The notes beneath the pieces are model-generated. The model worked only from the letters and a program-made list of their open reading frames with translations. It had not been told where the DNA came from and searched no databases. This document shows, in pieces, positions 4,899-64,000 of a stretch of 64,000 bases of DNA. Location of the stretch: positions 1 to 64,000 of the IMG/VR virus record IMGVR_UViG_3300029841_000001; one strand, given 5' to 3'. Source of the DNA: a virus (Duplodnaviria > Heunggongvirae > Uroviricota > Caudoviricetes). How positions within the stretch are numbered: position 1 is the first letter of the stretch; every line of letters begins with the position of its first letter. Both the position numbers and the translations under genes were made by a program.

Positions 4899-5810
4899 TT
4901 ATTCTCCTTCTACAATTCCCCAACCTTTACAAGTAGGGCATTCACAATATTTTTTGTTAATCTGTGACATAAGCTCTGTTAAAAATTTCTCTACTTTATT
5001 TTGTAAATCTTGATAATTTTCTCCGATAATAGATGGAGCTTTTACACAATCTTTTCCAAAATCTGTAGATGTTGAATTTTTAAAATCAATAATCGTTTCT
5101 GTTTTATGTGAAATCATACGATTAACCCACTTAGGCTTTCTTTTTCTTTTACTGAATAGATTATTATTTGTATCAATTAAAATATTGTATGGATCAGCCA
5201 ATGCGATTTTCTTCTTTACTTCAAAATGAAAATCATAATCAGATGTGATATCAGCAACATTAGTATCAATATTTGCTTTAACATAATTTCTTATAATCTT
5301 TAACATTTCATCACAATCTAGTTTGCAAGGTTTGTCTTGATATGCTTCTTCTGGATATTCAATTTGTGTGAGTAAATCTGTTTTTGCATTATATTTATTG
5401 GGAACAAACTCAAAATTTTCTCTTGAGTAAATTTCTTTAATTTCAAATTCAATTGGTTCATATTCTCCTGGAATAGTGTCATACTTATAGTTATATAATC
5501 CAATTACTTCATCGTATTCTTCACTTTGTTCCATTTCTTGTGTGATAATCTGTGGCATGAGTTCTGTTGCAGTATATCCTGCTTTCAGTTCATACCTAAC
5601 ATTAATACGTTTATCTTCTTGCTTTGCTGCTACAACTTTAGGAATACTATTAAGTTTAAACCATCTATCTTTATTTGTTTTCTCTGGTACTTCACCATCA
5701 AATAAGTATCTAGTTAAGTCTGTAACTCCATAATAATCTTCATCTGCTATGTAAATATAGTTTTTACAGTTAATTACTTTAAGTTTTAATAGATTTTCTT
5801 TACTATACAT
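4899..5810 (-). CDS. Hypothetical protein with C-terminal zinc ribbon
   Basis: 303 aa, C-terminal CECPTCKGWG. Confidence 0.4.
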   Translation of the reverse strand: MYSKENLLKLKVINCKNYIYIADEDYYGVTDLTRYLFDGEVPEKTNKDRWFKLNSIPKVVAAKQEDKRINVRYELKAGYTATELMPQIITQEMEQSEEYDEVIGLYNYKYDTIPGEYEPIEFEIKEIYSRENFEFVPNKYNAKTDLLTQIEYPEEAYQDKPCKLDCDEMLKIIRNYVKANIDTNVADITSDYDFHFEVKKKIALADPYNILIDTNNNLFSKRKRKPKWVNRMISHKTETIIDFKNSTSTDFGKDCVKAPSIIGENYQDLQNKVEKFLTELMSQINKKYCECPTCKGWGIVEGE

Positions 5811-49379: not shown

Positions 49380-50023
49380 TTTCCCCTCTCATATTTCATT
49401 CTTCTCTCTACTTCTTTATCATTTTCTTTATCATTGAAGTATTTATAAGCTAACATCATGGGATAATCAGAATCTTTAGCTCTTGGATATAACATATATT
49501 CACACCAATTAACTTCTCCATCATCTTTAACCCAGCTTGTGCCTTCAAATAGATTCAAGAAAACATTCTGATATGAATACTTTTCATTCTGCACACGATA
49601 ATCTTTGATGATTGTAGACTTATCATATCCACTAATTTTTACAAGAATATTATCAATCATGACTCTTTTACCTAATCGTACAAGCCATTTCGTAAACTCT
49701 TTATATGTTTGATTATATTCTCTATCTCTTAATGCAGCATCTACAACTAAGATGTATTCATCTTGTGTACGCAACATCCCTCTACTTCTTGTTCTATTAC
49801 CATACCTATCAACAAGATTATTAGTTCTTTCTCCAAATTCATCACAAGAACAGGAACTATTATGTCCATTCTTTTGAATTACATATACATCCATGTCTTT
49901 CTCTGAACCAGAAACTATCGGTAAATGTGCTAAGACGGTATCAAGAATATATCTTTTCTCTGCTTGTGTACGCCCTATTGGAGATACTGTTATTGTTCCC
50001 TGTATGTAAGTCCAACTACTCAT
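49376..50023 (-). CDS. Hypothetical protein
   Basis: 215 aa. Confidence 0.4.
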   Translation of the reverse strand: MSSWTYIQGTITVSPIGRTQAEKRYILDTVLAHLPIVSGSEKDMDVYVIQKNGHNSSCSCDEFGERTNNLVDRYGNRTRSRGMLRTQDEYILVVDAALRDREYNQTYKEFTKWLVRLGKRVMIDNILVKISGYDKSTIIKDYRVQNEKYSYQNVFLNLFEGTSWVKDDGEVNWCEYMLYPRAKDSDYPMMLAYKYFNDKENDKEVERRMKYERGK

Positions 50024-50221
50024 TTATAGCCCTTCCTCAGGATAATGTCCCTTAAATTTTTTAAATCCTAAATCTAAAGTACAAACATCGTTTTCTATAG
50101 TTTTATATCTAACATAATATTTCTCTTCAAAATCATCACCAACATTCGGAAAGGTGTTTTTGTCCAAATCTTCAAGATATTCTCTCGAATATGAAAGTGG
50201 TACATTTATAATTAATTTCAT
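50024..50221 (-). CDS. Hypothetical protein
   Basis: 65 aa. Confidence 0.3.
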   Translation of the reverse strand: MKLIINVPLSYSREYLEDLDKNTFPNVGDDFEEKYYVRYKTIENDVCTLDLGFKKFKGHYPEEGL

Positions 50222-50249
50222 AAACTATCTCCATAAAAGCAAGATTTCA

Positions 50250-50675
50250 TCAGTCACCACACAACTTTTCGGCATAAGTTTTTAATTCTACTACTTTACT
50301 ACGAGGAATTTTTACTGTCACTTTTTCATATACGTCAATGCTATTTAAAAATTCTGCGATTTCTTCTTGCTCAGATTCATAATCTAAATCATTATCTTTA
50401 TAAACACTCTCTAACTCCCATCTTAAATTCTCACCATCACATTCTAATTTCCCTTCAATGGCATATTCTTTATCTGATTTAAAGCTTTCTTTTACTGTAA
50501 CTTTTCCTTCTGTTTCGCTATATTTTCCATCAATGTCAGCAACATATACTTCGGTTGGAAAACACTCTTTGATTTTTTCATATGAAGATTTTTTAATCCA
50601 AATATTTTCCTCATATTCTACTCCGCTATAATATGCATAAGCGTATAAATTTGCCTTTACTAATTCCATTTTCAA
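50250..50675 (-). CDS. Hypothetical protein
   Basis: 141 aa. Confidence 0.4.
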   Translation of the reverse strand: MKMELVKANLYAYAYYSGVEYEENIWIKKSSYEKIKECFPTEVYVADIDGKYSETEGKVTVKESFKSDKEYAIEGKLECDGENLRWELESVYKDNDLDYESEQEEIAEFLNSIDVYEKVTVKIPRSKVVELKTYAEKLCGD

Positions 50676-51172
50676 TTCCTCCCATAATTTGATCTTCTGC
50701 TAATAACAACGCAATCTACTATATCATCTAGCATCTTTGATATTTCGCTATAAGTCCCACTAAATGCAGTTCCAGTTGTCTTTAATTCATATGTCCATTT
50801 ATCTTTATCTTTTGTACAAATAACTGGGATACTCATATATGTAACTGTTCCTTTCGGTATGATAACTGGACAATATTCATACGCATAATCTTCTTTTAAT
50901 ACTTTTAACCATGTTTGACAATTTTTATTGTATGATTTATATTTTGCTCTACTCATATGCACACGAATATATTCTTTTGTCTTATCAGAATAATCAATAG
51001 AAATAAACTTATTCACAACAAGTAAAACTCCATCTGTAATTCTATAAATGTCCTGATAATCTGTTTGTGCTACTACTTCCATATTTTCACCTCTATTCAT
51101 TTTTATTCGCTTTGGAAATTTCGACTTGAACAAGTCTAATAGATTTAATAGATTTTGATGAATAATTATCAT
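50672..51172 (-). CDS. Hypothetical protein
   Basis: 166 aa. Confidence 0.4.
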   Translation of the reverse strand: MIIIHQNLLNLLDLFKSKFPKRIKMNRGENMEVVAQTDYQDIYRITDGVLLVVNKFISIDYSDKTKEYIRVHMSRAKYKSYNKNCQTWLKVLKEDYAYEYCPVIIPKGTVTYMSIPVICTKDKDKWTYELKTTGTAFSGTYSEISKMLDDIVDCVVISRRSNYGRN

Positions 51173-51174
51173 TT

Positions 51175-51843
51175 CTATCCAAGCAGCTCTTTATATACTT
51201 TTAATTTCTCCGCTAACTCAGGATTGTCACTTGCGTACATCTCATACAGCTTTGTCTGATCCATTCTTGCAATCATTTTATCCATCTGTTTTTTAATTTT
51301 ATCTGCTTCTTTATTACGTTCTTTCTCTTTGCGTTCCTTCACACGTTTGTCATAAGACGATGTATCAACTTTGCATATGACCTCAGCGGTAATATCTTTT
51401 CTTCCTTTTTCTTTCGCTTCTTCTGGTGTAATAATATTCTTAATTGTTAGAACATTTTTATTTACTCCACTAACTAATATATTATCACCAATCGCATATG
51501 TGTTCCCATCATTAAATATTGCATAATGATAATCCTTTGTCATTCCATAATATCCTGTTTCTTCTTCCGTTACTGCAACTGCATAATATCCTTCTAATTT
51601 TGCCATGTTATTATTCTCACTTTCTATTTCTATAAGATGACCTTTATGAACTTCATCAATTATTCCATCATCAAAATATACTGTTACATACTTATAACTA
51701 TTTTCATCTCTTTCTTTTATAATCCCTGTCTTTCCTTGCAAAGGAGATAAAGGATACATATATTTAACTCTAATATCGCCCATTGTTTGTTTTTCCTCTA
51801 CAGCTTTCATCGAAAGCATAATCACTACAAGTCCACTTCTCAC
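51175..51843 (-). CDS. Hypothetical protein (probable true start at internal MGDIRVKY)
   Basis: 222-aa ORF. The internal Met is preceded by GAGGAAAAACAAACA. Confidence 0.4.
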   Translation of the reverse strand: MRSGLVVIMLSMKAVEEKQTMGDIRVKYMYPLSPLQGKTGIIKERDENSYKYVTVYFDDGIIDEVHKGHLIEIESENNNMAKLEGYYAVAVTEEETGYYGMTKDYHYAIFNDGNTYAIGDNILVSGVNKNVLTIKNIITPEEAKEKGRKDITAEVICKVDTSSYDKRVKERKEKERNKEADKIKKQMDKMIARMDQTKLYEMYASDNPELAEKLKVYKELLG

Positions 51844-51957
51844 TTTTATACATCAATCCATGCATTCCTCTAAATCTAGGATGTGGATATACGTCTACGA
51901 CAGCACCTTGAACTTATACAGCCACACCTATGTTTTCTCCTTGCTTAATATGTTTCA

Positions 51958-52368
51958 TCATTCCAGGTCAATATCCTTTCCATCAAAATCAGATAAGTCA
52001 ATAATCCATTCATATTTATCAGTTTCTTCGTTATAATGTTTTACGGATATCATAGCAACCCAATTCAGAATCTTTTTAAATAAGTTCTCATCATAATTAC
52101 ATTCTCTATTCCAAAATAAATTATTGCTAAATATGTAATACAGAAATGAATGTAACTTATTGTCTCTATGATTCTCCAATACCCATTCAACCATAGGAAA
52201 TAAAAATATCTGATTAGCAAGTTGATAAGTAATGTCAATGTCATCACAATAATATTTGTGATAATATCTATTCATTGCATTAAATACTGACCCGTACTTT
52301 TCATAATTGTATCTTCCCTTGCAAATAAGAAATATCTCTTTAGAAAATTTTTCTTTCTCCTTATCCAT
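51958..52368 (-). CDS. Hypothetical protein
   Basis: 136 aa. Confidence 0.4.
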   Translation of the reverse strand: MDKEKEKFSKEIFLICKGRYNYEKYGSVFNAMNRYYHKYYCDDIDITYQLANQIFLFPMVEWVLENHRDNKLHSFLYYIFSNNLFWNRECNYDENLFKKILNWVAMISVKHYNEETDKYEWIIDLSDFDGKDIDLE

Positions 52369-52690
52369 TATAATTCTCTCCGTAAACTGCTATTTCTGGT
52401 TTACCATCTTCATCCAATATGTAATATGGTGTAATGCCACCATAATGATCTGAACCTTGTACTACATATACAATTTTAGTGGTTTTATCATATACAAAAT
52501 ATTGACTGAATATACACCCATCATTTGATGCGATTTTTGTTTTCTTAATTTCAATAAATTGACCGAATGATTGAACTTTTTCACCTTTATCATTTATCAC
52601 TTTGTCACCACATCCAGTAAACGAAAGTGTCAGTCCAGATACAAGTAATCCAATTAATAGTTTCTTAACTTTCATTCTGTCCCCTCTCAA
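52361..52690 (-). CDS. Lipoprotein
   Basis: Signal peptide and lipobox MKVKKLLIGLLVSGLTLSFTGC; start probably at the internal MKVKK. Confidence 0.5.
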   Translation of the reverse strand: MRGDRMKVKKLLIGLLVSGLTLSFTGCGDKVINDKGEKVQSFGQFIEIKKTKIASNDGCIFSQYFVYDKTTKIVYVVQGSDHYGGITPYYILDEDGKPEIAVYGENYNG

Positions 52691-52693
52691 AAC

Positions 52694-53473
52694 TCACATT
52701 TCAACAATTCTGTATAATTGCCTATTCAGATAATGTTCAAGTAAATAATCATTATCTAGCCCAGTACCATGATAAAATTCTTCTGCAATTCCACCACCTA
52801 TAGCACATAATGTATCCATATCACATTTCAACGAGAATACATTTCGCAAGAAACTTTCATAATCATCACTTTCCAGAAAACATCTTATTGCAACAGGTAC
52901 ACTTCCTTGACAAGTTTCATTCCACTGATATGTCTTTCTATAGTCTTCAATTTTATATTCAACACTATATTGATAATCGTCTTTTGGGTAATTCTTCTTC
53001 ACATATTCATAGATTTCTGCTTTTGTAGCACCTGTTCTTGCCATATAAATGCACATTGCTGTTACAACTGCTCCTTTGATTCCCTCTGAATGATTATGTG
53101 TACACTCAGCAGATTTTGTAGCCCATTCGATAACTTCTTTTTCTGTATTAAAATGTTCTCCGACATAAGAACATCTCATTGCAGATCCATTACCAAAACT
53201 TCCATATGTAGTTTCATCATCGTATCTTAACCACGTTTCAAAATTGTTTCCATATCCTGCATTTGGATATTTTCTTCCCCATTCTCTATATGATTCTGCG
53301 AAAGATTTATTATTAAGAATTGCTAATTTAGCAGCAAGTGTCATTACAGTATCATCTGTAAAATAACATCTATCAGTAAATAACTTACAATTCTTCCAGT
53401 CTAAATCAATCGGTCTACCAAATTCATATTGTGAACCTGCAATATCTCCTAAAATTGCGCCAATGATAGCCAT
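52694..53473 (-). CDS. ADP-ribosylglycohydrolase family protein (ARH/DraG-like)
   Basis: N-terminal AIIGAILGDIAGSQYEF (GDALG.p.E motif) and FTDDTVMTLA (DDT motif); 259 aa. Confidence 0.6.
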   Translation of the reverse strand: MAIIGAILGDIAGSQYEFGRPIDLDWKNCKLFTDRCYFTDDTVMTLAAKLAILNNKSFAESYREWGRKYPNAGYGNNFETWLRYDDETTYGSFGNGSAMRCSYVGEHFNTEKEVIEWATKSAECTHNHSEGIKGAVVTAMCIYMARTGATKAEIYEYVKKNYPKDDYQYSVEYKIEDYRKTYQWNETCQGSVPVAIRCFLESDDYESFLRNVFSLKCDMDTLCAIGGGIAEEFYHGTGLDNDYLLEHYLNRQLYRIVEM

Positions 53474-53558
53474 AGTATTAATCTCCTTTATATTAAATTG
53501 TAATTTTTATGGGATTTTATTAAGAAATATTAGAAATTTTTACCATGAAACCACGATT

Positions 53559-53756
53559 CTATGTATTTACTTCTTCAAAAATATTTCCAATCTGATGTCC
53601 AATCATCTTCCTGTCTTTTATCTTCTTACATTTCGTACACCGACATTTACCAATCACAACTTCGCAACCATCATAATCATATTTAATATGTCGAGGTCTT
53701 TCGATCAATACCCACTCATGTTTACACATTAGCTGATCCATCCTTATCAATCTCAT
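53559..53756 (-). CDS. Zinc-ribbon protein
   Basis: CKHEW...CRCTKCKK. Confidence 0.3.
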   Translation of the reverse strand: MRLIRMDQLMCKHEWVLIERPRHIKYDYDGCEVVIGKCRCTKCKKIKDRKMIGHQIGNIFEEVNT

Positions 53757-54312
53757 ATTTTAATAATTCTCCATTTCTAATGATTATTCTTGAGCAAACA
53801 AATTTTACTTTCAAATCTGTATCCCATGAATCACGTTTCTCAATTCTTGTTATAATCACAGGAGCAATTCCATTCTTTGTACCGCAATAAATCAAATCTC
53901 CTGGCAGCAACACATCATACATATTCTCTTTTGATTTTGGCAATCTCCAAACATATTCTTTATTAATAATTCCATTTGGATGTTTACCATAAATATATAC
54001 AGTTGGTTTCTCTTTATATGTAAGAACTTTCTCAGGTGGAACTAAACGTCCATATCTTACACGTTGTTTATCAGTATATTTATGTTTTCTTAACGTGATA
54101 CGTTTTGCATCACAACTCTCAGCATTATGACTTTTTAACACCAGATACATTATGTAGCCATCTACTAAAACATTCTTCTCATCTACTACTATGTACCTAT
54201 CCTGATTTCCTATTTCTTTATAATATCTACAACATTTTTCATATTTGTATAAACTTGGTACACTATTTTCAAAACTCTCTGGAATTTTGATTTCTGAAAG
54301 ATTCATCTTCAT
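53722..54312 (-). CDS. Hypothetical protein
   Basis: 196 aa. Confidence 0.4.
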   Translation of the reverse strand: MKMNLSEIKIPESFENSVPSLYKYEKCCRYYKEIGNQDRYIVVDEKNVLVDGYIMYLVLKSHNAESCDAKRITLRKHKYTDKQRVRYGRLVPPEKVLTYKEKPTVYIYGKHPNGIINKEYVWRLPKSKENMYDVLLPGDLIYCGTKNGIAPVIITRIEKRDSWDTDLKVKFVCSRIIIRNGELLKYEIDKDGSANV

Positions 54313-56582
54313 TATGCAGTAGCCCCTTTCTTATTGAATCTAATGAAGTCGTTCCTCATATGTAAATAATTTCTCTTCTGATCAATCTCATATGTATTTG
54401 TTCTTTTAAAGTAGTCCTTAAACCAATCGTCAATATCCTCATCCATCTTATAAGCATAAGCAATAAGAGCAATAAGAGATTTATGATTTACTCCATCTAA
54501 GAGTTTTGAATTATTATCAACATCAAGTGTTACAACATCCAAATCTTCCTCATAATCCAGGATATCGGCATCTGTCACATCATCATCAACACACATTTTT
54601 ACAAATTCTAAAGTATCTTTATCTACTACTTCTCCACTAACATGCTCGATTTCTTTGTTTCCAATAGCTGAATACTCTGTTACTTCTGCAATAATTGGCT
54701 TCTTATCATCAGATTCTTCTACTACTTCTGTATCAAATAAATCATCTTCGATTACATCTAATTCTGATTCTTCAACAGAATCTTCTATATGTAAGTATTC
54801 TTTCATCAGAGTAAGTAAATGATTGAATCTTTTTGTTACAGAAGAGCGATCCTTTGTACCTTTCTGACCATTTAAACAATCATATGTAATACCGTCAATT
54901 TCCTTGCTATGTAATGTTTCTTTAAACTCCTGAATAAAATCATTGAATTTATTATCTTCAACGCCATATTCTATGAATTTATCAAATAACGCAAACCATA
55001 AAAATGAATTTTTGTTATTAAAAATATCCGATGTATCACCTCTTAACACATTAGATAATTTCTCCAATGTCAAATAGAAATCAATAAATACTGATTCATT
55101 TGCATTTTCTGTTAAGTAAATACACATTTTCCCAAAGTCTTTATCAAAATGGCTAAGATATTTAGATGTCATTATTGCTTCAATAATGACTCTTCTAAGT
55201 GATCCATTCTTGATATTCGTATTTGAATAACTTGACTTATCACAATCAACCTTAAAGAAGTCCATCTTTAAAATCTTATCTACATATTCGGCATAGGATT
55301 CTTCCAATCCTAGCCATCCTGACTGAGAAACGTTCATTGGTCTACATCTATTGAATCGTGCAATATCATAAGCAATATCTTTCTTTGTACAATTCAGATT
55401 AAGCATTACAGGAACTTGATAATCCTTAAATTTATCCTGTAATTCTTCTGGTAACTGAGAAAATTTCTTTCCACGAATATCAAATGTTTTACTTTCGGGT
55501 ATTGGAAATCCATCTTCATTCAAAATCACATTACCATCTTCATCTGTCTTATCAGTCTGATATTCAATCATATATCTCTGTACATTCTTTGAAACAGCAA
55601 ATCCATCTTCCAGATAATCTTTTAAATTTGTAGAACGCTGTTTGCCATCAATTAACCAGTGCATCGTAATTCCGGCTTTGATTTCTTCTGAAATTACAAT
55701 CTGTAAAAGTGAATTACCTTGTAAAATATCAGAAATTAATTCACTTTTTGTAAGTAAATTCCATTGTCCAGAAGTTCTTTGCAATGGATGATTATCTCTT
55801 AATCTGTGCTGTCTTAACTGTTTACTAAGAGATTCTATTGAATAACTGGTAGACTTTGTTCTTTCTGATGTTGTCGTTTTTGTTTCCATTGGTAATTCCT
55901 CCTCAATATTTACATTCTCGCATTCTTCTGTTTTTAGAAGTTTTCTTTTGTCATATTCTTTCATATCAGAAAGATATGTATAATATTCCTTATCGGAAAT
56001 ATGTAAAATCTCTTTGATCTCTGTAGAATTGTATCCTTGCATTATTAAATCCGCAATTTGACGTTGTATAGTTCCAAGAGAATTAATATATCTAATTACA
56101 TTTTCCCCAAGATTCAATAATTCTCCGACATCAATATTACTTTCAATATCAAAATCCGAAGGAATCACATCCATATATTTTGTTTCTCCATCATCTGTCA
56201 TTAAATTATCTAATGATGTTGGATAAATATATTGTTTGACTTCTTTATTACCTTCTTTTGATGTTACAATCTGACATCTCTTTCCTCTGTTTTTACGTGT
56301 TATATAGGTTTTTATCTTATTCGTAATTCCAAAATACATATAACCATTGAATTTATCTTCATCAAAATCTTCAATGTTCTGATCTAATTGACTTTTTATA
56401 TACTTTGAAATATATAAATTTGCTATTGAGTAACATTCTTCTCTATCAAAATCGGTGATACCACCAAACTGCGAAAGAATTTTATCTACCATAGTATGTA
56501 ATTTTTTTGCTGATTCTTCTGGTTTATCCTCGTTTACTTTATAGTACGATTCCAGAATTTCTTTGTAGTGCATCTGTACCAC
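54312..56582 (-). CDS. Sigma-70-like HTH (regions 2/4-like) fused to a DUF262 (ParB/DGQQR-type) domain and a long acidic C-terminal region
   Basis: N-terminal ~210 aa include LGTIQRQIADLIMQGYNSTEIKEILHIS (sigma region-4-like HTH). The middle has HPLQRTSGQW ... WLIDGKQRSTNL, i.e. the DUF262 [FY]QR..W + DGQQR motifs. The C-terminus is D/E-rich. Confidence 0.5.
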   Translation of the reverse strand: MVQMHYKEILESYYKVNEDKPEESAKKLHTMVDKILSQFGGITDFDREECYSIANLYISKYIKSQLDQNIEDFDEDKFNGYMYFGITNKIKTYITRKNRGKRCQIVTSKEGNKEVKQYIYPTSLDNLMTDDGETKYMDVIPSDFDIESNIDVGELLNLGENVIRYINSLGTIQRQIADLIMQGYNSTEIKEILHISDKEYYTYLSDMKEYDKRKLLKTEECENVNIEEELPMETKTTTSERTKSTSYSIESLSKQLRQHRLRDNHPLQRTSGQWNLLTKSELISDILQGNSLLQIVISEEIKAGITMHWLIDGKQRSTNLKDYLEDGFAVSKNVQRYMIEYQTDKTDEDGNVILNEDGFPIPESKTFDIRGKKFSQLPEELQDKFKDYQVPVMLNLNCTKKDIAYDIARFNRCRPMNVSQSGWLGLEESYAEYVDKILKMDFFKVDCDKSSYSNTNIKNGSLRRVIIEAIMTSKYLSHFDKDFGKMCIYLTENANESVFIDFYLTLEKLSNVLRGDTSDIFNNKNSFLWFALFDKFIEYGVEDNKFNDFIQEFKETLHSKEIDGITYDCLNGQKGTKDRSSVTKRFNHLLTLMKEYLHIEDSVEESELDVIEDDLFDTEVVEESDDKKPIIAEVTEYSAIGNKEIEHVSGEVVDKDTLEFVKMCVDDDVTDADILDYEEDLDVVTLDVDNNSKLLDGVNHKSLIALIAYAYKMDEDIDDWFKDYFKRTNTYEIDQKRNYLHMRNDFIRFNKKGATA

Positions 56583-56604
56583 CGATCCTCTCTGTTAATA
56601 GTTA

Positions 56605-57285
56605 CTATCGAAGCATATCCAATGCCAAGTCATAGTATTCAGTTCTTCCCTGATACTTCTCATATGTAGCTTTACTTAATTCAAACTTTAATTTTTCTAA
56701 TGTGTAATGATATGTAATAGCATCTTGCATTACTTTTATATAACATTGACATTGTTTGATCCGCTTATGTTTATCTCTTACATCATCAAGTAGATAACCA
56801 ACTTTTGCCATCTTATGCGCTTGTGGTTTCTTGCCACCAGATTCTTCCTTGTAAGTCTGTAATGCATGTTCAATATCTGCTTCTGCCGAATCATATTTAG
56901 ATAATGCTGTGGAAAGCATATTCTGATATGTAGTAAGCTGCGCCATATTCCATCCAGCAATACCTAAAAGATTATTTGTTTCTTGCATAATCTGATCAAG
57001 AATAGACACATCAAAATCAATATCATTCTTACCTACAAATACACCTTTATTACTTCTACTTCTTACTTCCTGTTCCGCAATTTTCTCTCCCGAAGAATCA
57101 TCCACCATATTGAAACTTCTAATCCAAGATAACTTCTTACTTTTATTATTCAACAAGGCTCTTGCTTGTTTAAAAGTAAATTTCTTTGCGTTTACCGGTG
57201 AAGTGCTGTACATGACCCTTCCTGGATGAATAGGATCATCCATGACATAGTTCTTACCATCTGTCAAAATGTACAATTTTAGCAT
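56605..57285 (-). CDS. Hypothetical protein
   Basis: 226 aa. Confidence 0.4.
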   Translation of the reverse strand: MLKLYILTDGKNYVMDDPIHPGRVMYSTSPVNAKKFTFKQARALLNNKSKKLSWIRSFNMVDDSSGEKIAEQEVRSRSNKGVFVGKNDIDFDVSILDQIMQETNNLLGIAGWNMAQLTTYQNMLSTALSKYDSAEADIEHALQTYKEESGGKKPQAHKMAKVGYLLDDVRDKHKRIKQCQCYIKVMQDAITYHYTLEKLKFELSKATYEKYQGRTEYYDLALDMLR

Positions 57286-57324
57286 CTCCTTTCATTCTTA
57301 TAAGTTTTACTTCTCTTCTGTAAA

Positions 57325-57398
57325 TGGAAATTATGGGATTTGAACCCATCATTAATCACAAAATAGTGATTTCTCAGTCCAATTTGAGCTAAATTTCC
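57325..57398 (-). tRNA. Probable tRNA gene with atypical anticodon loop (6 or 8 nt); no encoded CCA
   Basis: Minus-strand reading: GGAAATT-TA-GCTC-AAATTGGACT-GAGA-A-ATCAC-TATTTT-GTGAT-TAATG-ATGGG-TTCAAAT-CCCAT-AATTTCC-A. It has a perfect 7-bp acceptor stem, U8/A9, a D-arm with GG, a 5-nt variable loop and a canonical T-arm (GGTTCAAATCC). The anticodon stem-loop cannot be drawn with a 7-nt loop. Confidence 0.5.
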
Positions 57399-57517
57399 CG
57401 AAAATGAGTACAAAAACTACGATGAAACATGACTTTCATGTATCTCTTATTTATACATTCTCCATATTCAGTTGTATTATTATTGGAATAATCGCTGAAA
57501 TGCTATGAATTAATATA

Positions 57518-57655
57518 GAAACTACTTGACTTTTAATGCCAGACCAACTAAACTAATTAATAGCATTTCTGGGATTCCCGTCCCTCATGCTAAATCATTA
57601 TGTAAGAGGTTCTTATCTCATTATGGTGCGCCAACACCGAGATAAGAGCCTTTTT
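57518..57655 (+). ncRNA. Candidate small RNA on the plus strand (promoter-like element plus intrinsic terminator)
   Basis: TTGACT-17 nt-TAAACT promoter-like element at ~57518-57546. Downstream is a stem (A)GGTTCTTATCTC / GAGATAAGAGCC(T) followed by TTTTTTATTTT at 57598-57655. There is no ORF, and it sits in a ~500-bp non-coding gap. Confidence 0.3.
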
Positions 57656-57838
57656 TATTTTGCCTTTCGACTTTCTTATAATATAGCAAACATTTGTTTG
57701 TGTCAATACTCATCAGAACATTTGTTTGCATTTTTTTAATTATACCAAAAATTAGGTATAAATCCTATATTTACCATTGTTTATGTTTATATGTTACTAC
57801 CTTAGTATAGGAAATCGAGCGGTAATTTTTGGAAATTT

Positions 57839-58120
57839 TTATTCCAATTTTTTGATTCCCTTCTCCGCAAATAGAATAGTTTTTTCTTTGTTTTTATCAT
57901 GTGTTTTTAATGATGAAACAATGATGTTTCTATCATACATTATCGGAAATCCTGTAGATATAGCTTTGATCCCATGTGTGATGCTAATTGGAATAGCTTC
58001 ACAATCAGGAGATCTGCTATCTAAATCAAATGAGGAAAATAACACATTCTCTCCACCGTTTTTCTTATACTCAGTTAATAATTTTATAGCTTCGTCTACA
58101 GACACAATCTTTCCATTCAT
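57839..58120 (-). CDS. Hypothetical protein
   Basis: 93-aa ORF with protein-like composition; preferred over the overlapping low-complexity plus-strand ORF 57777..58139. Confidence 0.4.
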   Translation of the reverse strand: MNGKIVSVDEAIKLLTEYKKNGGENVLFSSFDLDSRSPDCEAIPISITHGIKAISTGFPIMYDRNIIVSSLKTHDKNKEKTILFAEKGIKKLE

Positions 58121-58179
58121 GCCAATTCCTCCACCCTAATCTTCTTTTTGCCAAATAAGTTTGCAAGGAAACATTTCTC

Positions 58180-58330
58180 TACCAATTCTCTTTCCTCTTT
58201 ATTGTCAACATTTCCCCATTTTTCTACTACGTCACGCTTGTCAATGGTAAAAATCTGCTCTCGTGAACTACCACGAAGCTAAAGACTTCGTAGCTTCTTG
58301 GGACTATACTCTTATGAGCATTTCATTACC
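58180..58330 (-). ncRNA. Predicted omega-RNA (reRNA) region at the 3' end of tnpB / right end
   Basis: Inferred from TnpB biology: the guide RNA scaffold derives from the tnpB 3' end and RE, and this region contains the RE hairpin. Boundaries are not determinable from sequence alone. Confidence 0.3.
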
Positions 58331-59680
58331 AAGCTAATAACCGTGTTCCACAGTCTCTTATATTCATCGCTGCATTATAATCTCTATCGTTTTCATATCC
58401 ACAATCACAAGTATACCATCTGTCTGATAATTGCAAATCTTCTTTAATAGTGCCACAACAATGACACATTTTAGAAGACGGAAACCATTTATCAATCTTA
58501 ATAAATTGTTTTCCTTGTTCTTCCAACTTATATTTCAAAAAAGTCCTAAACATTCCAAATCCATTATCATGAACATTCTTTCCAAGTTTTAGACATTGAG
58601 CCATATTTCTTAAATCAATATCTTCTACTATAACAGCGTCATATTCGCCAGCTATTCTTCTCGATTCTTGGTGTAACCAATTAAGTCTTTGATTTGCAAT
58701 ATGTCTTTGTAATGTTGTAATTTTTTGTTTTTGTTTATACCAGTTTTTAGATTTAAGTTTTTTTCTTGACAATCCTCTTTGGATTTTTTTTAATTTTTCT
58801 TCTGATTTCCTATAATAGTGAGGATAATTGGCTTTCTTACCATTGCTATCAACATAGAAATCATGTTGAGAATAATCTAATCCAAGAACTTTTTCTGATT
58901 TCTTTGATTCAATATCAATTACATATTTAACACATAAACTGACATAAAATACACCCTTATTATCCATTGAAACAGTACAATTCTTAATAATTGAATTATT
59001 TGGCAATGGACGATGTTGTTTTACTTTAATCAATGTTTTAAGTTTTGGAATTTTTAACATAGAATTTTCCAATGTAATTAAATTCCATTTTTCACCTTGT
59101 GACTGATTATATGTTCTATATGAAAAATCATTGTTCTTAATACTCTTAAATCTTGGCATTCCTTTTAAGTCTCTGAAAGTAAGTTTAATTCCTAATGTCT
59201 TTTCTCTTTTTCGACTGCTTTTGGTATATGTCTTTTTATCATATTCTGTATTAAATTTTTTAATGGCATTATTAAAATCCATTTTTGCACTTGATAAACA
59301 CTGAGCATCAACATTTTTCATATAATCAAACTGTCTTGAAAAATCAGTATATTTACTCAAATGCAATTCCGATTTTTTAATTATTCCATTCTGATAACTA
59401 GACTCTTCGAGTTTTCTATATAACTCATCAACATACATATTGTATATTTTTCTTGCACAACCAAATGATTGTAAGAAAAACTCTTTCTGATCTTTAGTTG
59501 GAGCAATTTTAAACTTATAACCTCGATTAATGATAGTTTCCATCGTCTCACCACCTTTCTATGGATATTTTAGTTCCTACATATTTTTCTTTGATTTATT
59601 CTTCTTTATGTTGGTATATTCTCTATTCACATTCATTCACTAGGCTAAAGACCTAGTGGATTTCTGCTCTAGAAGTTTTA
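58260..59680 (-). mobile_element. IS200/IS605-family (IS1341-type, tnpB-only) insertion sequence with subterminal hairpins
   Basis: Intact TnpB ORF flanked by two hairpins in the same orientation with identical CTAAAGA loops and different, compensatory stems: ACGAAG/CTTCGT at 58273-58291 and CACTAGG/CCTAGTG at 59638-59658. This is typical of IS200/IS605 LE/RE structures. The element ends are approximate. Confidence 0.6.
58326..59543 (-). CDS. tnpB: TnpB (OrfB) RuvC-like RNA-guided nuclease/transposase-associated protein
   Basis: N-terminal OrfB-type HTH (GYKFKIAPTKDQKEFFLQSFGCARKIYN), C-terminal RuvC-III plus zinc ribbon CHCCGTIKED...CDCGYENDRDYNAAMNI; 405 aa. Confidence 0.75.
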   Translation of the reverse strand: METIINRGYKFKIAPTKDQKEFFLQSFGCARKIYNMYVDELYRKLEESSYQNGIIKKSELHLSKYTDFSRQFDYMKNVDAQCLSSAKMDFNNAIKKFNTEYDKKTYTKSSRKREKTLGIKLTFRDLKGMPRFKSIKNNDFSYRTYNQSQGEKWNLITLENSMLKIPKLKTLIKVKQHRPLPNNSIIKNCTVSMDNKGVFYVSLCVKYVIDIESKKSEKVLGLDYSQHDFYVDSNGKKANYPHYYRKSEEKLKKIQRGLSRKKLKSKNWYKQKQKITTLQRHIANQRLNWLHQESRRIAGEYDAVIVEDIDLRNMAQCLKLGKNVHDNGFGMFRTFLKYKLEEQGKQFIKIDKWFPSSKMCHCCGTIKEDLQLSDRWYTCDCGYENDRDYNAAMNIRDCGTRLLAW

Positions 59681-59689
59681 AATATTCTT

Positions 59690-59824
59690 TTTTTAGATTC
59701 ATATGCTTCTTTTCTATAAGCTAATGTTTGATTATAAAACAAATCTACAACATCCAAACGTCTTATTAATTTGTTCTTCTTGTTGTTTATTTGGATAAAT
59801 TCTATACTTATAAGCTTTTAACAT
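59690..59824 (-). pseudogene. N-terminal fragment of a second TnpB-like gene, frameshifted
   Basis: Reads MLKAYKYRIYPNKQQEEQINKTFGCCRFV, then after a +1 shift YNQTLAYRKEAYESKKR.., the canonical OrfB N-terminus. The frame runs directly into the LE hairpin of the intact element. No downstream remainder is found. Confidence 0.5.
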
Positions 59825-59864
59825 TACCTATCATCTTCTTTCTAACTTTTAACAACTTTAAGTT

Positions 59865-60161
59865 TTATTCTAACATAGGATATGGAAACATTATATTTCT
59901 CATTAATTCTCCTTCTTTTTCGTTTGACAAACATCCAATTACACCAAAGAAATCATTGTCTTGATATCCAATTTCTTTAGCTAATTCAATTAATTCTTTA
60001 CCTATCTTTTTCTTATTTCTTAAAGTAGGTTTATGGATCATTGTAGATTTATTGTAAATTGCAATAGTAACGCTATCTCCTGGCGCTGCATCAATCATTT
60101 TTTTTGCTTCTTCTTTAGAAACTGTTAAATATCCTTCAATCATGCTAATACTTCCTCCCAA
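59865..60161 (-). CDS. Small protein, possible MazE/AbrB-like partner of the MazF-like toxin
   Basis: 98 aa. GYLTVSKEEAKKMIDAAPGDSVTIAIYNKSTMIHKP loosely resembles a swapped-hairpin antitoxin segment. Overlaps the toxin gene by 22 nt, but lies downstream of the toxin rather than upstream. Confidence 0.3.
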   Translation of the reverse strand: MGGSISMIEGYLTVSKEEAKKMIDAAPGDSVTIAIYNKSTMIHKPTLRNKKKIGKELIELAKEIGYQDNDFFGVIGCLSNEKEGELMRNIMFPYPMLE

Positions 60162-60544
60162 TTAATATTTTCTCCAAAGAACATTGTATTCCAACATACT
60201 TTATTTACAATGTTTCTCTGTTCTTTATCTACAACGGCTCCAAGCTTTCTTTTGATCTCACATTTTTTATCTAGTGTATAAGGTTGCTCACCAAGAACCA
60301 TTGAGTATAAAGACAAACCAGTATCACTATTTGCACTGATACATCCATGAGTAGGAAGTCCAGTTCTTTTTATAATATGAGTCAAAGGCATGGCAATAAC
60401 TGTTGGAGCTGTAGTAGTCCCTTTTTCATTTCCCACAATCACATATGGACGTTTCTTTTTCTGCACAGAGCCAGATGGTGTTGTCATCTTAATCTCAGCT
60501 TCAATAATATCATATCTGTGATATTCATTTCTCATACCTTCCAT
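60140..60544 (-). CDS. MazF/PemK-family endoribonuclease toxin
   Basis: KRPYVIVGNE...VIAMPLTHIIKRTGLPTHGCISANSDTGLSLYSMVLGEQPYTLDKKCEIKRKLGAV matches the PemK/MazF pattern (RP..V..., PLT, TLDK); 134 aa. Confidence 0.6.
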   Translation of the reverse strand: MEGMRNEYHRYDIIEAEIKMTTPSGSVQKKKRPYVIVGNEKGTTTAPTVIAMPLTHIIKRTGLPTHGCISANSDTGLSLYSMVLGEQPYTLDKKCEIKRKLGAVVDKEQRNIVNKVCWNTMFFGENINWEEVLA

Positions 60545-60635
60545 ATATGTAACCTCCTCTCTGTTGTGGTATGTATTCCTTACCTTTGATAGTTCTTATT
60601 ATAGCGTGTACGCTAATTATTGTCAAGACTAATTA

Positions 60636-60664
60636 TTGCAAAAAATAAATATTTTTGATATAAT
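60636..60664 (+). promoter_or_regulatory. Sigma-70 consensus promoter for the XRE gene
   Basis: TTGCAA (60636-60641), 17-nt spacer, TATAAT (60659-60664); RBS GGAGGG 8 nt before the ATG at 60693. Confidence 0.6.
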
Positions 60665-60692
60665 CTATTCATCAAAAATTGGAGGGAAATTC

Positions 60693-60902
60693 ATGAAAGT
60701 AATTCTCAAAGAAACCCTTGAAAAGAAAGGTAAATCACAATATTGGCTTGCAAAAGAAACAGGAATAGCTGCATCTACTTTAAGCAATATGTGTTCAAAT
60801 AAAACAACTAAAGTAGATTTTGTTGTTCTCCAAAAAATATGTAATGCTTTAAAATGTGATATTACTGACATTCTTTCAACAGCAAAGGACGATGATAAAT
60901 AA
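60693..60902 (+). CDS. XRE-family (Cro/CI-type) helix-turn-helix transcriptional regulator
   Basis: MKVILKETLEKKGKSQYWLAKETGIAASTLSNMCSNKTTKVDFVVLQKICNALKCDITDIL is a classic HTH_XRE. The ORF track starts it at 60636, but the RBS supports the internal Met. Confidence 0.7.
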   Translation: MKVILKETLEKKGKSQYWLAKETGIAASTLSNMCSNKTTKVDFVVLQKICNALKCDITDILSTAKDDDK

Positions 60903-60923
60903 TCATCGCCCATACATATATCA

Positions 60924-61568
60924 TTATATTAAATTAATTTGTAAAAGATCTTGTTTTATTTTATTCAATCCATCTGGTGAATGTGAAATATTAGTATTAA
61001 ATTCCTTTGTACATTTCATTAAATATTTTATTTGCTCAAAATCATTATCTTTTATCTTGTTGTTAACTGCAATATTATAATTATGCACACTTTCTTTCAA
61101 TATAAATACTGTTTCCAGTGGAACATCTGCATTTAACAAATAACCATTTCCTTCCACATATGTAAAATCACATTCCTTACTAACTCTACAATAATCCAAT
61201 AAATTATAGTATAATATATCTTTTAAGAATATTAACACAGAATATTCAAAATCATATTTTTGAACAATGACACTACCTGTTTCTTTAAACCATTTGTAAA
61301 AACATTCTTCCTTGATTTTACTTTTTTCTCCAAACATATTATACAATTCATTAAAAAAATCACTTATGCAATTTAACAGCTTTGATTTTAACCTTTTAAA
61401 ATCAACGTTCATTCTGTCTTCTTCATTAAGATTATTATAATTAGATTCAATCAAATAATAAATCAAGCTAGCTAAATCCCATGTACTTACATCTTCATCT
61501 TTTGATATTCTATCGTATATTTTCCAAAAGTCTAAATCATCTGGAAAAACAAAACCATTATCTACCAT
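60924..61568 (-). CDS. Hypothetical protein
   Basis: 214 aa. Confidence 0.4.
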   Translation of the reverse strand: MVDNGFVFPDDLDFWKIYDRISKDEDVSTWDLASLIYYLIESNYNNLNEEDRMNVDFKRLKSKLLNCISDFFNELYNMFGEKSKIKEECFYKWFKETGSVIVQKYDFEYSVLIFLKDILYYNLLDYCRVSKECDFTYVEGNGYLLNADVPLETVFILKESVHNYNIAVNNKIKDNDFEQIKYLMKCTKEFNTNISHSPDGLNKIKQDLLQINLI

Positions 61569-61748
61569 ATCACTTATCCTCTAAAATATTATTCATTCGA
61601 TATTTCATTATTTAATATGATTATTGTACAAAATTTATTGTCCTTAAAGTATGATATATTGATTATATAATAATTTAATTTTCACAAATTCTTTTCCACA
61701 ATAATAACAATTTACATATTTTTCATAAAAGCAACCTTTCATCTATAT

Positions 61749-61979
61749 TTAAACATATCCAGGACGCACTCGAATAGTTCCCTTTTTAGTTTTATGCGCA
61801 TCCATACATTGATCATTGCAAAAAATTAACGTTCTTCCTCTATTAAGATCAATACATCCTAACATTCCTGCGTTATTTGCAATATTATATAGTTCAAATC
61901 CAAATGTAATTTGTCCATCAATTAAAACATTTTTTTCTTTTCCACAATGGAAACATTTTAATGTAATTATATTCTCCAT
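61749..61979 (-). CDS. Zinc-finger protein
   Basis: CFHCGK...CNDQC..H; 76 aa. Confidence 0.35.
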   Translation of the reverse strand: MENIITLKCFHCGKEKNVLIDGQITFGFELYNIANNAGMLGCIDLNRGRTLIFCNDQCMDAHKTKKGTIRVRPGYV

Positions 61980-61984
61980 TTTAT

Positions 61985-62524
61985 TTACTTAACCTCAAAT
62001 TTAAGAATCATTTTCTTAACTCTATCAATTTCTTCTGTTGTATGTGGTGTTCCACCTGCGTTCATATCAATATACCACTGTAACACTTCTCGTTCTGTCT
62101 TTAAATCATTCACATTCAATTTTACAGTATGACTATTTAACATTGCTAAATCCGTATACTCATTGAAATATGATCCAAATACTTTGATTTCGTTATTGAT
62201 AAATCTGCAAATAGCAGTCAATCTTTGCAACCCATCTACACACACAAACTCATTGTATGCTCCATCTTGAACAGACCAATGCCATGATGGACAATTAAAG
62301 TATATGATATTTCCGCTTTTACCGCCTTTAAGAAAGAACTCTAACCATGCAATCTGCTGTTCCTCTGTCCATACATGTCCTCTCTGGAAATCTGGGTTAA
62401 GCTGCAAGTTCATATCTTCTTCCATGTCTTTTATCCATCTAGGAACTCTACTGATATTTACATCACATTGATAGTTACCATCCCTGGTAAATTGTGGTAT
62501 GTATTTAAATTTTGTATACTTCAT
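61985..62524 (-). CDS. DUF262 (ParB/DGQQR-type) domain protein
   Basis: NPDFQRGHVW ... CVDGLQRLTAI; 179 aa. Confidence 0.55.
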   Translation of the reverse strand: MKYTKFKYIPQFTRDGNYQCDVNISRVPRWIKDMEEDMNLQLNPDFQRGHVWTEEQQIAWLEFFLKGGKSGNIIYFNCPSWHWSVQDGAYNEFVCVDGLQRLTAICRFINNEIKVFGSYFNEYTDLAMLNSHTVKLNVNDLKTEREVLQWYIDMNAGGTPHTTEEIDRVKKMILKFEVK

Positions 62525-62544
62525 AACAATCTCCTTTTATAAGA

Positions 62545-63354
62545 TTATTCCTGACACAAGTTGTTATACATCTGTTCTACTTTATCCAAATGCTTTTGAT
62601 CCATCACTTTTCCTGTACGATTAAGCATTAAAAAATATTTTAATATTACTTTTTTGTCTGATTCTTCAATATTACCAACAGATATATGGTGATCTTTAAA
62701 CGTATATTTGTCCATACCACTTAAATCACTATAATATTTTCCCATATACGGAAATCTATCTTCATAAAATTCTACCAATGCATTTAATCGCTGTTTACCG
62801 TCAAGAATTTCATATCCATATCCATATTCCATCCATTTAGATGTAGAATGATGAACTAAAGCTATTTTACCAATATCAATATTATTAAAAATACTGTCAA
62901 TTAAAAGCAATTTATCTTCCATCGTCCATACATAATCTCTTTGATAATCTGGATTCATATTAATACCGAAATTATAATAAGTGTGTAGTAAACTCTCAAT
63001 CGTAGAATTATTAAAATTTATTCTTACATCTTGATTCTTTGAAAAATTACTATCATTATGTTTGATTGCTCGAATATCCATCCATGCAGTAACAATATAT
63101 TTCTGATAATCATATGGACTTCCATAGTTATTATCTGTTGCGGTGCATAATAACCCATATACCTTGCCATCATACAATACTTCTTTTATTACAGATTTCT
63201 TTAAAGAACCATATATAACCTCGTCACCAATATTAAAAGAATAAGTTGGCTCATTAATATATTGTACTCGATCTTCGATAAATGATAACTCTCTATCTCT
63301 TTCTTGTTTTAATCTCTCTTCTAATGTTAATTCTTTCTTTGTTTTTCTTGCCAT
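62545..63354 (-). CDS. DUF262 (ParB/DGQQR-type) domain protein with N-terminal extension
   Basis: NPDYQRDYVW ... ILDGKQRLNAL; 269 aa; tandem with the previous gene. Confidence 0.55.
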   Translation of the reverse strand: MARKTKKELTLEERLKQERDRELSFIEDRVQYINEPTYSFNIGDEVIYGSLKKSVIKEVLYDGKVYGLLCTATDNNYGSPYDYQKYIVTAWMDIRAIKHNDSNFSKNQDVRINFNNSTIESLLHTYYNFGINMNPDYQRDYVWTMEDKLLLIDSIFNNIDIGKIALVHHSTSKWMEYGYGYEILDGKQRLNALVEFYEDRFPYMGKYYSDLSGMDKYTFKDHHISVGNIEESDKKVILKYFLMLNRTGKVMDQKHLDKVEQMYNNLCQE

Positions 63355-63390
63355 GACAATATCCTTTCTTTAAAGCTGGATTTCAGCTTA

Positions 63391-63600
63391 TTAATGATAG
63401 TAATCTTTGCCTACGTTAAATCCAATTTCTAATAATTTTGCCTTTCCAGCTGCACTATTCAATGATTTTCCACTTGTAACTTCTTTACCATATCCATCGA
63501 ATACCGCAAAATAATTATTTGATAGCTTAATGACAGTAAAATGATCAAAATCCATACGTCCAGATTCTAAATCCACACGCCTTGCTTTAATTTTTTCCAT
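63391..63600 (-). CDS. Hypothetical protein
   Basis: 69 aa. Confidence 0.3.
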   Translation of the reverse strand: MEKIKARRVDLESGRMDFDHFTVIKLSNNYFAVFDGYGKEVTSGKSLNSAAGKAKLLEIGFNVGKDYYH

Positions 63601-63601
63601 A

Positions 63602-63844
63602 TTAATCTCCCACTCCTTCTAATTTTACTCCACAATTAGGGCAATACCCTTCAACATCTTTAATTAAAATCTGATCTTTACAATTTGAACATTTCATAAA
63701 ACTGTAAATATCGTCATTTACAAACATCCATCTTCCACAATGATTTTCTATAATCATTCTATACCCTGTATCTTTTACTTTTGCCATTTGTAACACTATC
63801 TTTCTCATAAAATGAAAGTTTGATTTCAGCGTTGTATTATTCAA
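63602..63844 (-). CDS. Zinc-ribbon protein
   Basis: CSNCKDQ...CPNCG; 80 aa. Confidence 0.35.
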   Translation of the reverse strand: MNNTTLKSNFHFMRKIVLQMAKVKDTGYRMIIENHCGRWMFVNDDIYSFMKCSNCKDQILIKDVEGYCPNCGVKLEGVGD

Positions 63845-64000
63845 TTCTAATGTCTGTTACACTACCATGCATTTCGTCATATAACTGAGAAGCAATAGTT
63901 TCTAAATCATCAAAATAATAATCCCATAAATCACATTGAAATCCATTTGGTGTGTCATTAATATAATATGTCGTGTCTAAATTCGTATCAATTGCCACAA
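63837..64000 (-). CDS. Hypothetical protein, partial (N-terminus beyond window end)
   Basis: Open minus-strand frame ending ...MHGSVTDIRIE* with the stop at 63837-63839 and no start within the window. Confidence 0.3.
   Translation of the reverse strand, partial: VAIDTNLDTTYYINDTPNGFQCDLWDYYFDDLETIASQLYDEMHGSVTDIRIE

Follow-up and report, generated by a model that had tools for sequence, protein, structure and literature searches.

Proteins of the DUF262 family (Pfam PF03235, GmrSD_N) carry motifs of the types QRxxxW, DGxQR and FxxxN (PMC12065111). In NsnA of the Menshen system this domain is followed by a helical DNA-binding domain, and in GmrSD, BrxU and SspE it is combined with DUF1524. 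Also described are a bacterial fusion of a ParB-CTPase-fold domain (PF02195) with Sigma70, which binds ATP (PMC12704722), and DndB, a ParB-like protein with a helical domain that represses transcription of the dnd operon in an ATP-dependent manner (PMC12704722, PMC12065111). Here we consider a stretch of 64,000 nucleotides (nt) of viral DNA from the Caudoviricetes (IMG/VR record IMGVR_UViG_3300029841_000001, positions 1 to 64,000), called the window below, in which a first-pass annotation had pointed to three DUF262 proteins, one of them fused to a sigma-like helix-turn-helix (HTH). The three open reading frames (ORFs) are indeed present on the minus strand, and all carry DUF262, recognised by Pfam in the two small proteins and by profiles, motifs and structure in the large one. 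The large protein, of 753 amino acids (aa), joins a sigma factor to a DUF262 module. Most likely this pairing serves the control of phage transcription and does not act as a restriction enzyme; of the roles listed by the annotation, transcription control is the best supported for the fusion.

The length of 753 aa is counted from an ATG, as in public gene calls, and this start is more likely than a GTG at 56582, to which the ORF can be extended (756 aa). The whole protein gave no Pfam match at E<=0.1 and no PHROG match, and its C-terminal 537 aa taken alone scored 18.2 bits with PF03235, under the gathering score of 33.2 bits. BLASTP between the large and the small proteins was not significant, and phmmer against PDB sequences returned nothing meaningful for the fusion, the 269-aa or the 226-aa protein. 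For the comparison of large and small proteins profile methods were required. With hhalign, the family of the 269-aa protein aligned with that of the 753-aa protein along the full DUF262 domain and with every motif in line (95.8% probability, E 6.9e-9). A hidden Markov model (HMM) of the domain cut from the large family was run on the six-frame translation of the window and recovered both small ORFs (1.6e-8 and 1e-4) and nothing else. The PADLOC model of NsnA (PDLC03877) matched residues 220-594 of the fusion at 1.3e-10, over model positions 33-383 of 385. In the family alignment of the large protein (63 members, 28-87% identity), Q265, R266, D309 and N408 are invariant and W271, G310, Q312 and R313 at least 90% conserved. 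The AlphaFold2 (AF2) model built on this alignment has a mean predicted local distance difference test (pLDDT) score of 86; a single-sequence AlphaFold model reached only 33 and was discarded. The fold of the fusion core matches BrxU, SspE, PadC and sulfiredoxin.

The motifs of the fusion read LQRTSGQW (I), IDGKQR (II) and RFNRCRPMN (III), and all three proteins carry motifs I and II and an equivalent of motif III. The first-pass annotation had seen the first two as a pair in each protein. Its literal patterns were slightly off, the spacing in motif I being QRxxxW in the small proteins and QRxxxxW, with one extra residue, in the large one, from which the final L of motif II is also missing. 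The pair itself stands with the spacing corrected, and is then found in exactly three of the window's 576 six-frame ORFs, those of the DUF262 proteins. Judged by motifs and profiles, the 753-aa protein is a genuine DUF262 protein. It falls in a separate NsnA-like clade, shares only profile-level similarity with the small proteins and has an extra ParBDB-like domain. That the motifs are a chance similarity, or the proteins recent duplicates of a structural gene, might be read from the missing Pfam match of the whole large protein and from the BLASTP result, but can be dismissed: the Pfam matches of the small proteins, the hhalign result, the structural match to BrxU and SspE, the uniqueness of the motifs and an identity of 25% between the two small proteins (BLASTP 3e-14) all speak otherwise. 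Nor does the word triplication fit, as all three proteins represent old, distinct lineages and not duplicates made in this phage.

No Pfam match to a DUF1524/HNH nuclease was found in any of the three proteins, including at their C-termini, and the C-terminal region of the fusion is all-helical in the confident AF2 model, with no beta-beta-alpha/HNH fold. None of them can thus be a GmrSD-type nuclease on its own, and the restriction role of the GmrSD/BrxU/SspE type that had been considered falls away. The small C-terminal helical domain of the fusion is optional. Among the best 150 representatives of the family, 30 have the core without this domain (18 with and 12 without sigma), and many prophage copies stop near residue 600.

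The N-terminal part of the fusion matches a PHROG sigma factor (2.2e-5). The profile of the fusion family matched PDB sigma factors over profile positions 36-183, covering sigma2 through sigma4, with sigma-H (3mzy, 6.3e-9, the lowest E value), SigA (9.3e-7) and FliA (7e-6) among them, besides dozens of others. The order of sigma2 then sigma4 is that of the sigma-70 family. From these alignments the N-terminus is a complete sigma2-sigma4 sigma factor, so that the sigma-like HTH of the first-pass annotation was an understatement. The phage has a second, stand-alone sigma factor of 164 aa, for which Pfam Sigma70_r2 gave 25.6 bits against a gathering score of 24. An HMM of the fusion N-terminus finds this gene in the six-frame window at 1.1e-16, and the two are thus paralogues. 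The stand-alone protein resembles sigma genes of Enterocloster (E. bolteae) phages, of SPO1-like phages and of Bacillus phage G. The phage therefore encodes two sigma factors, one of them fused, which suggests a two-sigma transcription cascade.

The pairing of sigma and DUF262 is not peculiar to this phage. An exhaustive search among cluster representatives at 50% identity gave 954 relatives, of which 245 score below 1e-30. Sigma is present in 83 of the best 150 representatives, and 59 start directly at DUF262. For a scan at the level of loci an alignment of 15 sequences was used, the 63-sequence alignment being too diverse; the loci gathered numbered 77 on viral contigs (80-180 kb) and 34 in bacterial genomes. 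Of the 108 loci whose core match is strong, 83 have sigma and the DUF262 core in one ORF, 23 have them as two adjacent genes, and two have no sigma. Fused or adjacent in 106 of these 108 loci, the combination is the rule in the clade, and not the unusual fusion that it had been taken for. In the split loci the sigma gene ends with TAA, TAG or TGA, and within 3-55 nt come a spacer resembling a ribosome-binding site (RBS) and the ATG of the core gene. Recoding of in-frame stops between sigma and core was considered and excluded, as all three stop codons are used and the RBS-like spacer and ATG follow. By their sequences the split cases are real two-gene operons, and neither recoding nor frameshifts. 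Such a pattern of fusion and fission indicates that the two parts work together (a Rosetta-stone link).

Nearly all bacterial members of the family are from Lachnospiraceae, and carriers include isolates of Faecalicatena contorta, Eubacterium plexicaudatum (ASF492) and Lachnospiraceae bacterium 28-4, as well as the complete chromosome of Lacrimispora sp. HJ-01. Other members are in gut phages of 80-180 kb. The family thus belongs to large temperate phages of Lachnospiraceae. The phage studied here, of about 170 kb, is itself a large gut phage of Lachnospiraceae. Its window has 30% G+C with nearly all genes on the minus strand, and its 756-aa ORF shares 85% identity with a faecal 'Bacteriophage sp.' record that bears no annotation. 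Identical or near-identical copies are found on contigs of 160-175 kb, and the phage is abundant in the human gut. Within the limited literature collection searched, no paper was found that describes either a sigma-DUF262 fusion or the small DUF262 family of phages.

How does this protein compare with the systems described so far? With Menshen NsnA the fusion has in common the two-domain architecture of DUF262 and helical DNA-binding domain and the three motifs, whereas the small proteins match only the DUF262 part of the model. It differs in that it is phage-borne and has a sigma2-sigma4 N-terminus, and in that its neighbours, the 226-aa protein and the 196-aa ParB-N-like/DUF5839 protein, have no match to an ATPase, to NsnB (ABC ATPase + DUF3696) or to NsnC in Pfam or PADLOC. 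The N-terminal sensor domains listed for NsnA include only sigma-70 region-1.1-like domains and not a whole sigma factor (PMC12065111). From GmrSD, BrxU and SspE all three phage proteins are set apart by the lack of DUF1524/HNH. DndB offers the parallel of a ParB-fold NTPase with a helical domain, working as a nucleotide-modulated DNA-binding regulator. However, the fusion matches no DndB/DGQHR model and has no dnd genes nearby, and DndB has no sigma domain. The PF02195-Sigma70 fusion also joins a sigma-70-family domain to a nucleotide-binding domain of the ParB/Srx superfamily, and is a precedent for control of sigma by a nucleotide switch (PMC12704722). Its Box II reads GEHRVRA (GxxR, supplement), whereas the phage fusion has DGKQR and a ParBDB domain and does not match PF02195. 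The phage DUF262 fusion is thus a separate branch, probably an independent fusion, and is phage- or prophage-borne and widespread.

Another parallel is provided by extracytoplasmic function (ECF) sigma factors with C-terminal extensions, which regulate sigma in cis, standing in for an anti-sigma factor. These are cellular stress regulators and not phage genes. To our knowledge their extensions are SnoaL-like, TPR-type or similar, and we know of none that is DUF262. According to the AF2 model and the profiles, the phage fusion resembles them in having a minimal sigma2-sigma4 core followed by a large fused C-terminal extension. Sigma factors with such extensions are described in PMC8999054 and PMC7730460 (ECF41, ECF42 and ECF56), the latter with a SnoaL_2 extension in the ECF56 protein SigG1. 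The coordinates of the fusion, of its domains and of the features discussed below are collected in the Table.

Table. Positions in the window of the sigma-DUF262 fusion, its domains and associated features
Feature	Position	Strand	Evidence or remark
Sigma-DUF262 fusion gene, 753 aa from ATG	54312..56573	-	ORF, public gene calls (753 aa), AF2 model
Fusion residues 1-215, sigma-70-family sigma factor of ECF-like minimal architecture (sigma2 helices, beta-hairpin linker, sigma4 HTH)	55929..56573	-	
Fusion residues ~236-420, DUF262 NTPase-type domain, ParB/Srx fold	55314..55868	-	profiles, motifs, fold match
Fusion residues ~421-598, all-helical, matching the C-terminal 'ParBDB' half of NsnA and the BrxU/SspE middle domain	54780..55313	-	
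Fusion residues ~599-650, acidic linker, predicted disordered	54624..54779	-	pLDDT 29-36 (residues 600-650), E/D-rich
Fusion residues 651-753, small five-helix C-terminal domain	54315..54623	-	helices only, pLDDT ~90
Stand-alone DUF262 protein, 179 aa, DUF262 domain only	61985..62524	-	Pfam PF03235 3.8e-13, 50.4 bits; phrog_1583 1.6e-27
Stand-alone DUF262 protein, 269 aa, conserved N-terminal extension of ~110 aa, then DUF262	62545..63354	-	Pfam PF03235 9.6e-17, 62.2 bits; phrog_1583 9.9e-35
Stand-alone phage sigma factor, 164 aa	31480..31974	-	TIGR02937 sigma70-ECF 2.7e-16, 59.7 bits (cutoff 42.9)
196-aa gene	53722..54312	-	start overlaps fusion stop; possible classical ParB-N-like domain (VLVDGY), weak DUF5839
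226-aa protein	56605..57285	-	directly upstream of fusion gene
TnpB (IS605-family OrfB / Cas12f-like)	58326..59543	-	Pfam; mobile insertion inside operon
MazF/PemK-like protein, first gene past divergent promoter	60140..60544	-	Pfam PemK_toxin 5.8e-14
Sigma-70/sigmaA-type promoter, perfect TTGACA-17-TATAAT (12/12)	60598..60626	-	consensus match; faces MazF-like gene and downstream operon
XRE/Cro-C1-type HTH gene	60636..60902	+	Pfam HTH_26 3.3e-16; divergent from MazF-like gene

Along the direction of transcription, the phage has a tyrosine integrase (outside the window), small ORFs, the 269-aa and then the 179-aa DUF262 gene, ORFs of 76 and 214 aa, a hairpin at 60887-60911, the oppositely oriented XRE gene, the MazF-like gene, a 98-aa ORF, TnpB, a 93-aa ORF, the 226-aa gene, the fusion, the 196-aa gene and an ADP-ribosylglycohydrolase. 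In Lacrimispora sp. HJ-01 the order is integrase, a TIR/SEFIR protein, a small reverse-strand ORF, a MazF-like gene and then the fusion, and the general layout of integrase, accessory genes, XRE, MazF and fusion is shared by this chromosome and the phage. The XRE and MazF-like genes are separated by 91 bp, within a switch region at 60545-60692. The spacer of the consensus promoter holds an inverted repeat (TAGCG-N4-CGCTA), an opposing promoter-like site faces XRE at 60636-60664, and upstream of the 226-aa gene there is a second strong promoter site (11/12), at 57706-57678. The XRE gene probably starts with the ATG at 60693, and the listed TTG start is then wrong; gene callers give it 69 aa. 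As far as sequence can tell, the divergent region looks like a repressor-controlled lysis-lysogeny switch, with the fusion in the early lytic operon.

Synteny was counted over 78 viral loci. XRE is found upstream of the fusion in 39 and the MazF-like gene in 54, the latter likewise in Lachnospiraceae prophages, and most relatives, down to those at 30% identity, have the XRE/MazF-like pair some 2 kb upstream of the fusion. The TnpB/MazF/XRE island proposed by the first-pass annotation therefore dissolves into a conserved pair and one insertion. TnpB stands between MazF and the fusion only in the window's own lineage (L002 among the loci inspected, L115/L117), TnpB-like matches in 13 of the 78 loci are all at other positions, and TnpB is thus the sole insertion there. 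The same phage has a second TnpB copy (L115 1591-2805), about 8 kb upstream of the small DUF262 pair and directly downstream of an 80-aa Lar_restr_allev (PF14354) gene (L115 1337-1579). The first position after the switch in a lytic operon is unusual for a 'toxin' of MazF/PemK type. The 98-aa ORF (59865-60161, minus strand) overlaps the MazF-like gene and often follows it across the clade. The 120-aa ORF at 57777-58139 on the plus strand is probably spurious, the conserved gene being an ORF of 93 aa on the minus strand (57839-58120) that is also predicted by gene callers. A tRNA at the T-arm-like hairpin at 57333-57349 was considered and rejected, as ARAGORN finds none in the window.

The 196-aa gene is probably translationally coupled to the fusion and lies 3' of it in 34 of the 78 viral loci. 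Its family profile has as best PDB match the N-domain of pNOB8 ParB, N-terminal and marginal at E 0.069, and its C-terminus matches DUF5839 at 9.3e-4, below the cutoff. We rejected it as a fourth DUF262 protein, since hhalign shows no similarity to DUF262. The 226-aa protein has no Pfam, PHROG, PADLOC or PDB match. By tblastn its gene is found in 15 related viral loci; it adjoins the fusion upstream in about 10, likewise in L085, and lies about 6 kb downstream of the fusion in L057-L060 and L075. The ADP-ribosylglycohydrolase (52694-53473, minus strand; Pfam 3.3e-28), two genes downstream of the fusion, may serve counter-defence or host takeover.

The two small proteins end right after the DUF262 domain. 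The 179-aa protein was matched by the PADLOC models NsnA and PD-T4-2_A, over the N-terminal domain of these models only. For the 269-aa type 1037 homologues were found, mostly of 265-270 aa and with invariant motifs. In relatives of the phage, the variable slot that separates integrase and repressor usually holds either the one small type or the other. Both types together were found in none of the 78 viral loci (8-kb flank), and the tandem pair was seen only in this phage's own contigs (L115-L117). The integrase-XRE slot that is held here by the pair is filled by the TIR/SEFIR protein in the Lacrimispora prophage. Homologues of the small proteins are also carried by lytic, T4-like phages of the Krischvirus group, in which a DNA methyltransferase is encoded two genes upstream of them and Alt-type ADP-ribosyltransferases three genes downstream, and by many Klebsiella and other phages. 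Judging from their sequences, the small proteins are separate paralogues of older date, with intact motifs and without a DNA-binding or effector domain. Their most likely role, which we put forward tentatively, would be that of NTP-dependent accessory factors in phage-host conflict, either in defence or in counter-defence.

Several further genes came to light in the same DNA and in related loci. A homologue of the Gabija anti-defence protein Gad1 is encoded at 4899-5810 (minus strand, Pfam 1.7e-65). An adenylosuccinate-synthetase homologue of PurA/PurZ type lies at 38013-39113 (minus strand, Pfam 5.7e-35). Genes of Vibrio and Rhizobium phages, some of them annotated as PurZ type, share 35% identity with it, and with the NCBIfam PurZ model, whose cutoff is 300, it scores only 39 bits. 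Conceivably the phage makes 2-aminoadenine DNA or changes purine pools. The 861-aa protein at 9489-12074 (minus strand) has no Pfam match and is a DNA polymerase according to tblastn, with about 40% identity to DNA polymerases of Bacillus and Paenibacillus phages. At the edge of the Faecalicatena contorta prophage, a 912-aa protein divergent from the fusion gene (L087 2329-5067) has a weak match (1.2e-5) to the eukaryotic-type RNA-dependent RNA polymerase family PF05183, and could be a YonO-like two-barrel RNA polymerase as in SPbeta.

Our favoured account, which we hold to be probable, is that the 753-aa protein is an alternative sigma factor of the phage whose activity or DNA targeting is gated by the nucleoside triphosphate (NTP)-dependent DUF262/ParBDB module; that the small pair are accessory conflict factors is a more tentative part of it. 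The fusion gene would be transcribed in an operon from the consensus host-sigmaA promoter, divergently from the XRE repressor gene; promoter type and operon position indicate that the protein is probably made early after infection or induction. The sigma part would then redirect host RNA polymerase onto phage promoters, and the DNA-binding module, as an NTP switch, would gate sigma or target it to phage DNA. We infer binding to RNA polymerase, time of expression, binding of NTP and action of DUF262 on sigma from the features described above. Some points weigh against this account. With single sequences the Pfam scores of both the sigma and the DUF262 part remain below the gathering thresholds. 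By k-mer counting, the 27 intergenic regions of the window gave only AT-rich and Shine-Dalgarno-like words and no convincing repeated phage promoter motif, so that no regulon can be assigned to the sigma factor. The position next to integrase and repressor is, in prophages, also the home of defence 'morons', and outside this family DUF262+ParBDB proteins have been described chiefly as defence-system sensors (PMC12065111).

The last two points bear on the possibility of a prophage defence or superinfection exclusion system, in which the DUF262 proteins would sense incoming, possibly modified, phage DNA and the sigma domain would be an added DNA sensor or output. The DUF262+ParBDB architecture equals that of NsnA, type II NsnA proteins bear varied N-terminal sensor domains (both PMC12065111), and the TIR/SEFIR protein occupies the equivalent slot in the Lacrimispora prophage. 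However, there is no effector, with neither DUF1524/HNH in any of the three proteins nor an NsnB ABC ATPase or NsnC next to them. The promoter of the fusion operon points away from the repressor gene, as lytic genes are arranged, and small-DUF262 homologues are carried by lytic phages. We consider such a defence role improbable. The presence in lytic phages would better suit another reading, in which the DUF262 domains, especially the small ones, are counter-defence decoys that heterodimerise with or compete against DUF262 defence proteins of the host (GmrSD/BrxU, SspE, Menshen NsnA, PD-T4-2, Dazbog), or use up their nucleotide, thereby disarming them. In strictly lytic T4-like phages the homologues lie in early accessory regions near the methyltransferase and the Alt-type enzymes. 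The small proteins are DUF262 only, matching the N-terminal domains of NsnA and PD-T4-2_A, they occupy a variable slot, and the phage has other counter-defence genes, e.g. Gad1. A passive decoy would have no need of nucleotide-binding motifs, which are nevertheless strictly conserved, and the obligatory link of the fusion to sigma would be left unexplained. This reading is plausible for the small proteins, but on balance unlikely.

A role as DndB/DpdB-like regulators or cofactors, targeting or controlling a DNA-modification enzyme of the phage, had also been raised by the first-pass annotation. The phage does have genes that may belong to modification or nucleotide pathways, for a PurA/PurZ-like enzyme, a radical SAM protein, a ThyA homologue and an N6/N4 methyltransferase; in the Lacrimispora prophage the fusion is followed by a methyltransferase gene, and in phage Phi1 a DNA methyltransferase is two genes upstream of the small DUF262 gene. 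Against this, no DndB or DGQHR match was obtained with NCBIfam or Pfam at E<=0.1, the motif being DGKQR or DGLQR and not of the DGQHR type. The genes scanned in and around 50000-64000 include none of dnd, ssp or dpdA/TGT type and no other modification gene, and the phage's own candidates named above are 10-20 kb away. With neither model matches nor dnd/dpd neighbours, this role seems very improbable.

If the 753-aa protein is a gated sigma factor, one form that the gating might take is suggested by analogy. Phage sigma factors are known to work with partner proteins, as gp28 and gp34/gp33 in SPO1 and gp55/gp33/gp45 in T4. The phage studied here is likewise a large phage with small sigma factors of its own, here two, and a partner that activates sigma while bound to DNA would be a counterpart of gp45, the sliding clamp of T4, which acts with the gp55 sigma factor (PMC2988020). 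No sequence relation was found between the DUF262 module and gp33 or gp45, and the coupling is an analogy. An NTPase domain, a DNA-binding domain, a flexible linker and a small helical C-terminal domain resemble the CTP clamps of ParB and KorB, which makes a clamp conceivable. In such a clamp the DUF262 domains would engage when NTP binds, dimerisation would be the part of the C-terminal helical domain that follows the acidic, flexible linker, and the ParBDB domain would hold DNA. The protein would load on phage DNA, perhaps modified or replicating, and bring RNA polymerase, so that a sigma factor tethered to an NTP-gated clamp would deliver the polymerase along phage DNA. This proposal is speculative and rather unlikely to hold as it stands. 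If true, the fusion would be a one-polypeptide analogue of the T4 late sigma activated by the sliding clamp (gp45-gp33-gp55), and the phage could confine transcription to its own genome.

DUF262 is mostly known as the sensor half of anti-phage nucleases, and it is joined here to a phage sigma factor and not to a nuclease. Phage DUF262 proteins should not be labelled 'GmrSD restriction endonuclease'. Many large phages and prophages of Lachnospiraceae, which are dominant gut bacteria, have kept the coupling of sigma and DUF262, and its fused and split forms constitute natural controls. Should the module gate sigma or target it, a nucleotide switch would be wired into transcription initiation in a new way, in a compact and testable system that would tie the field of ParB-fold proteins to the gene-expression programmes of phages.

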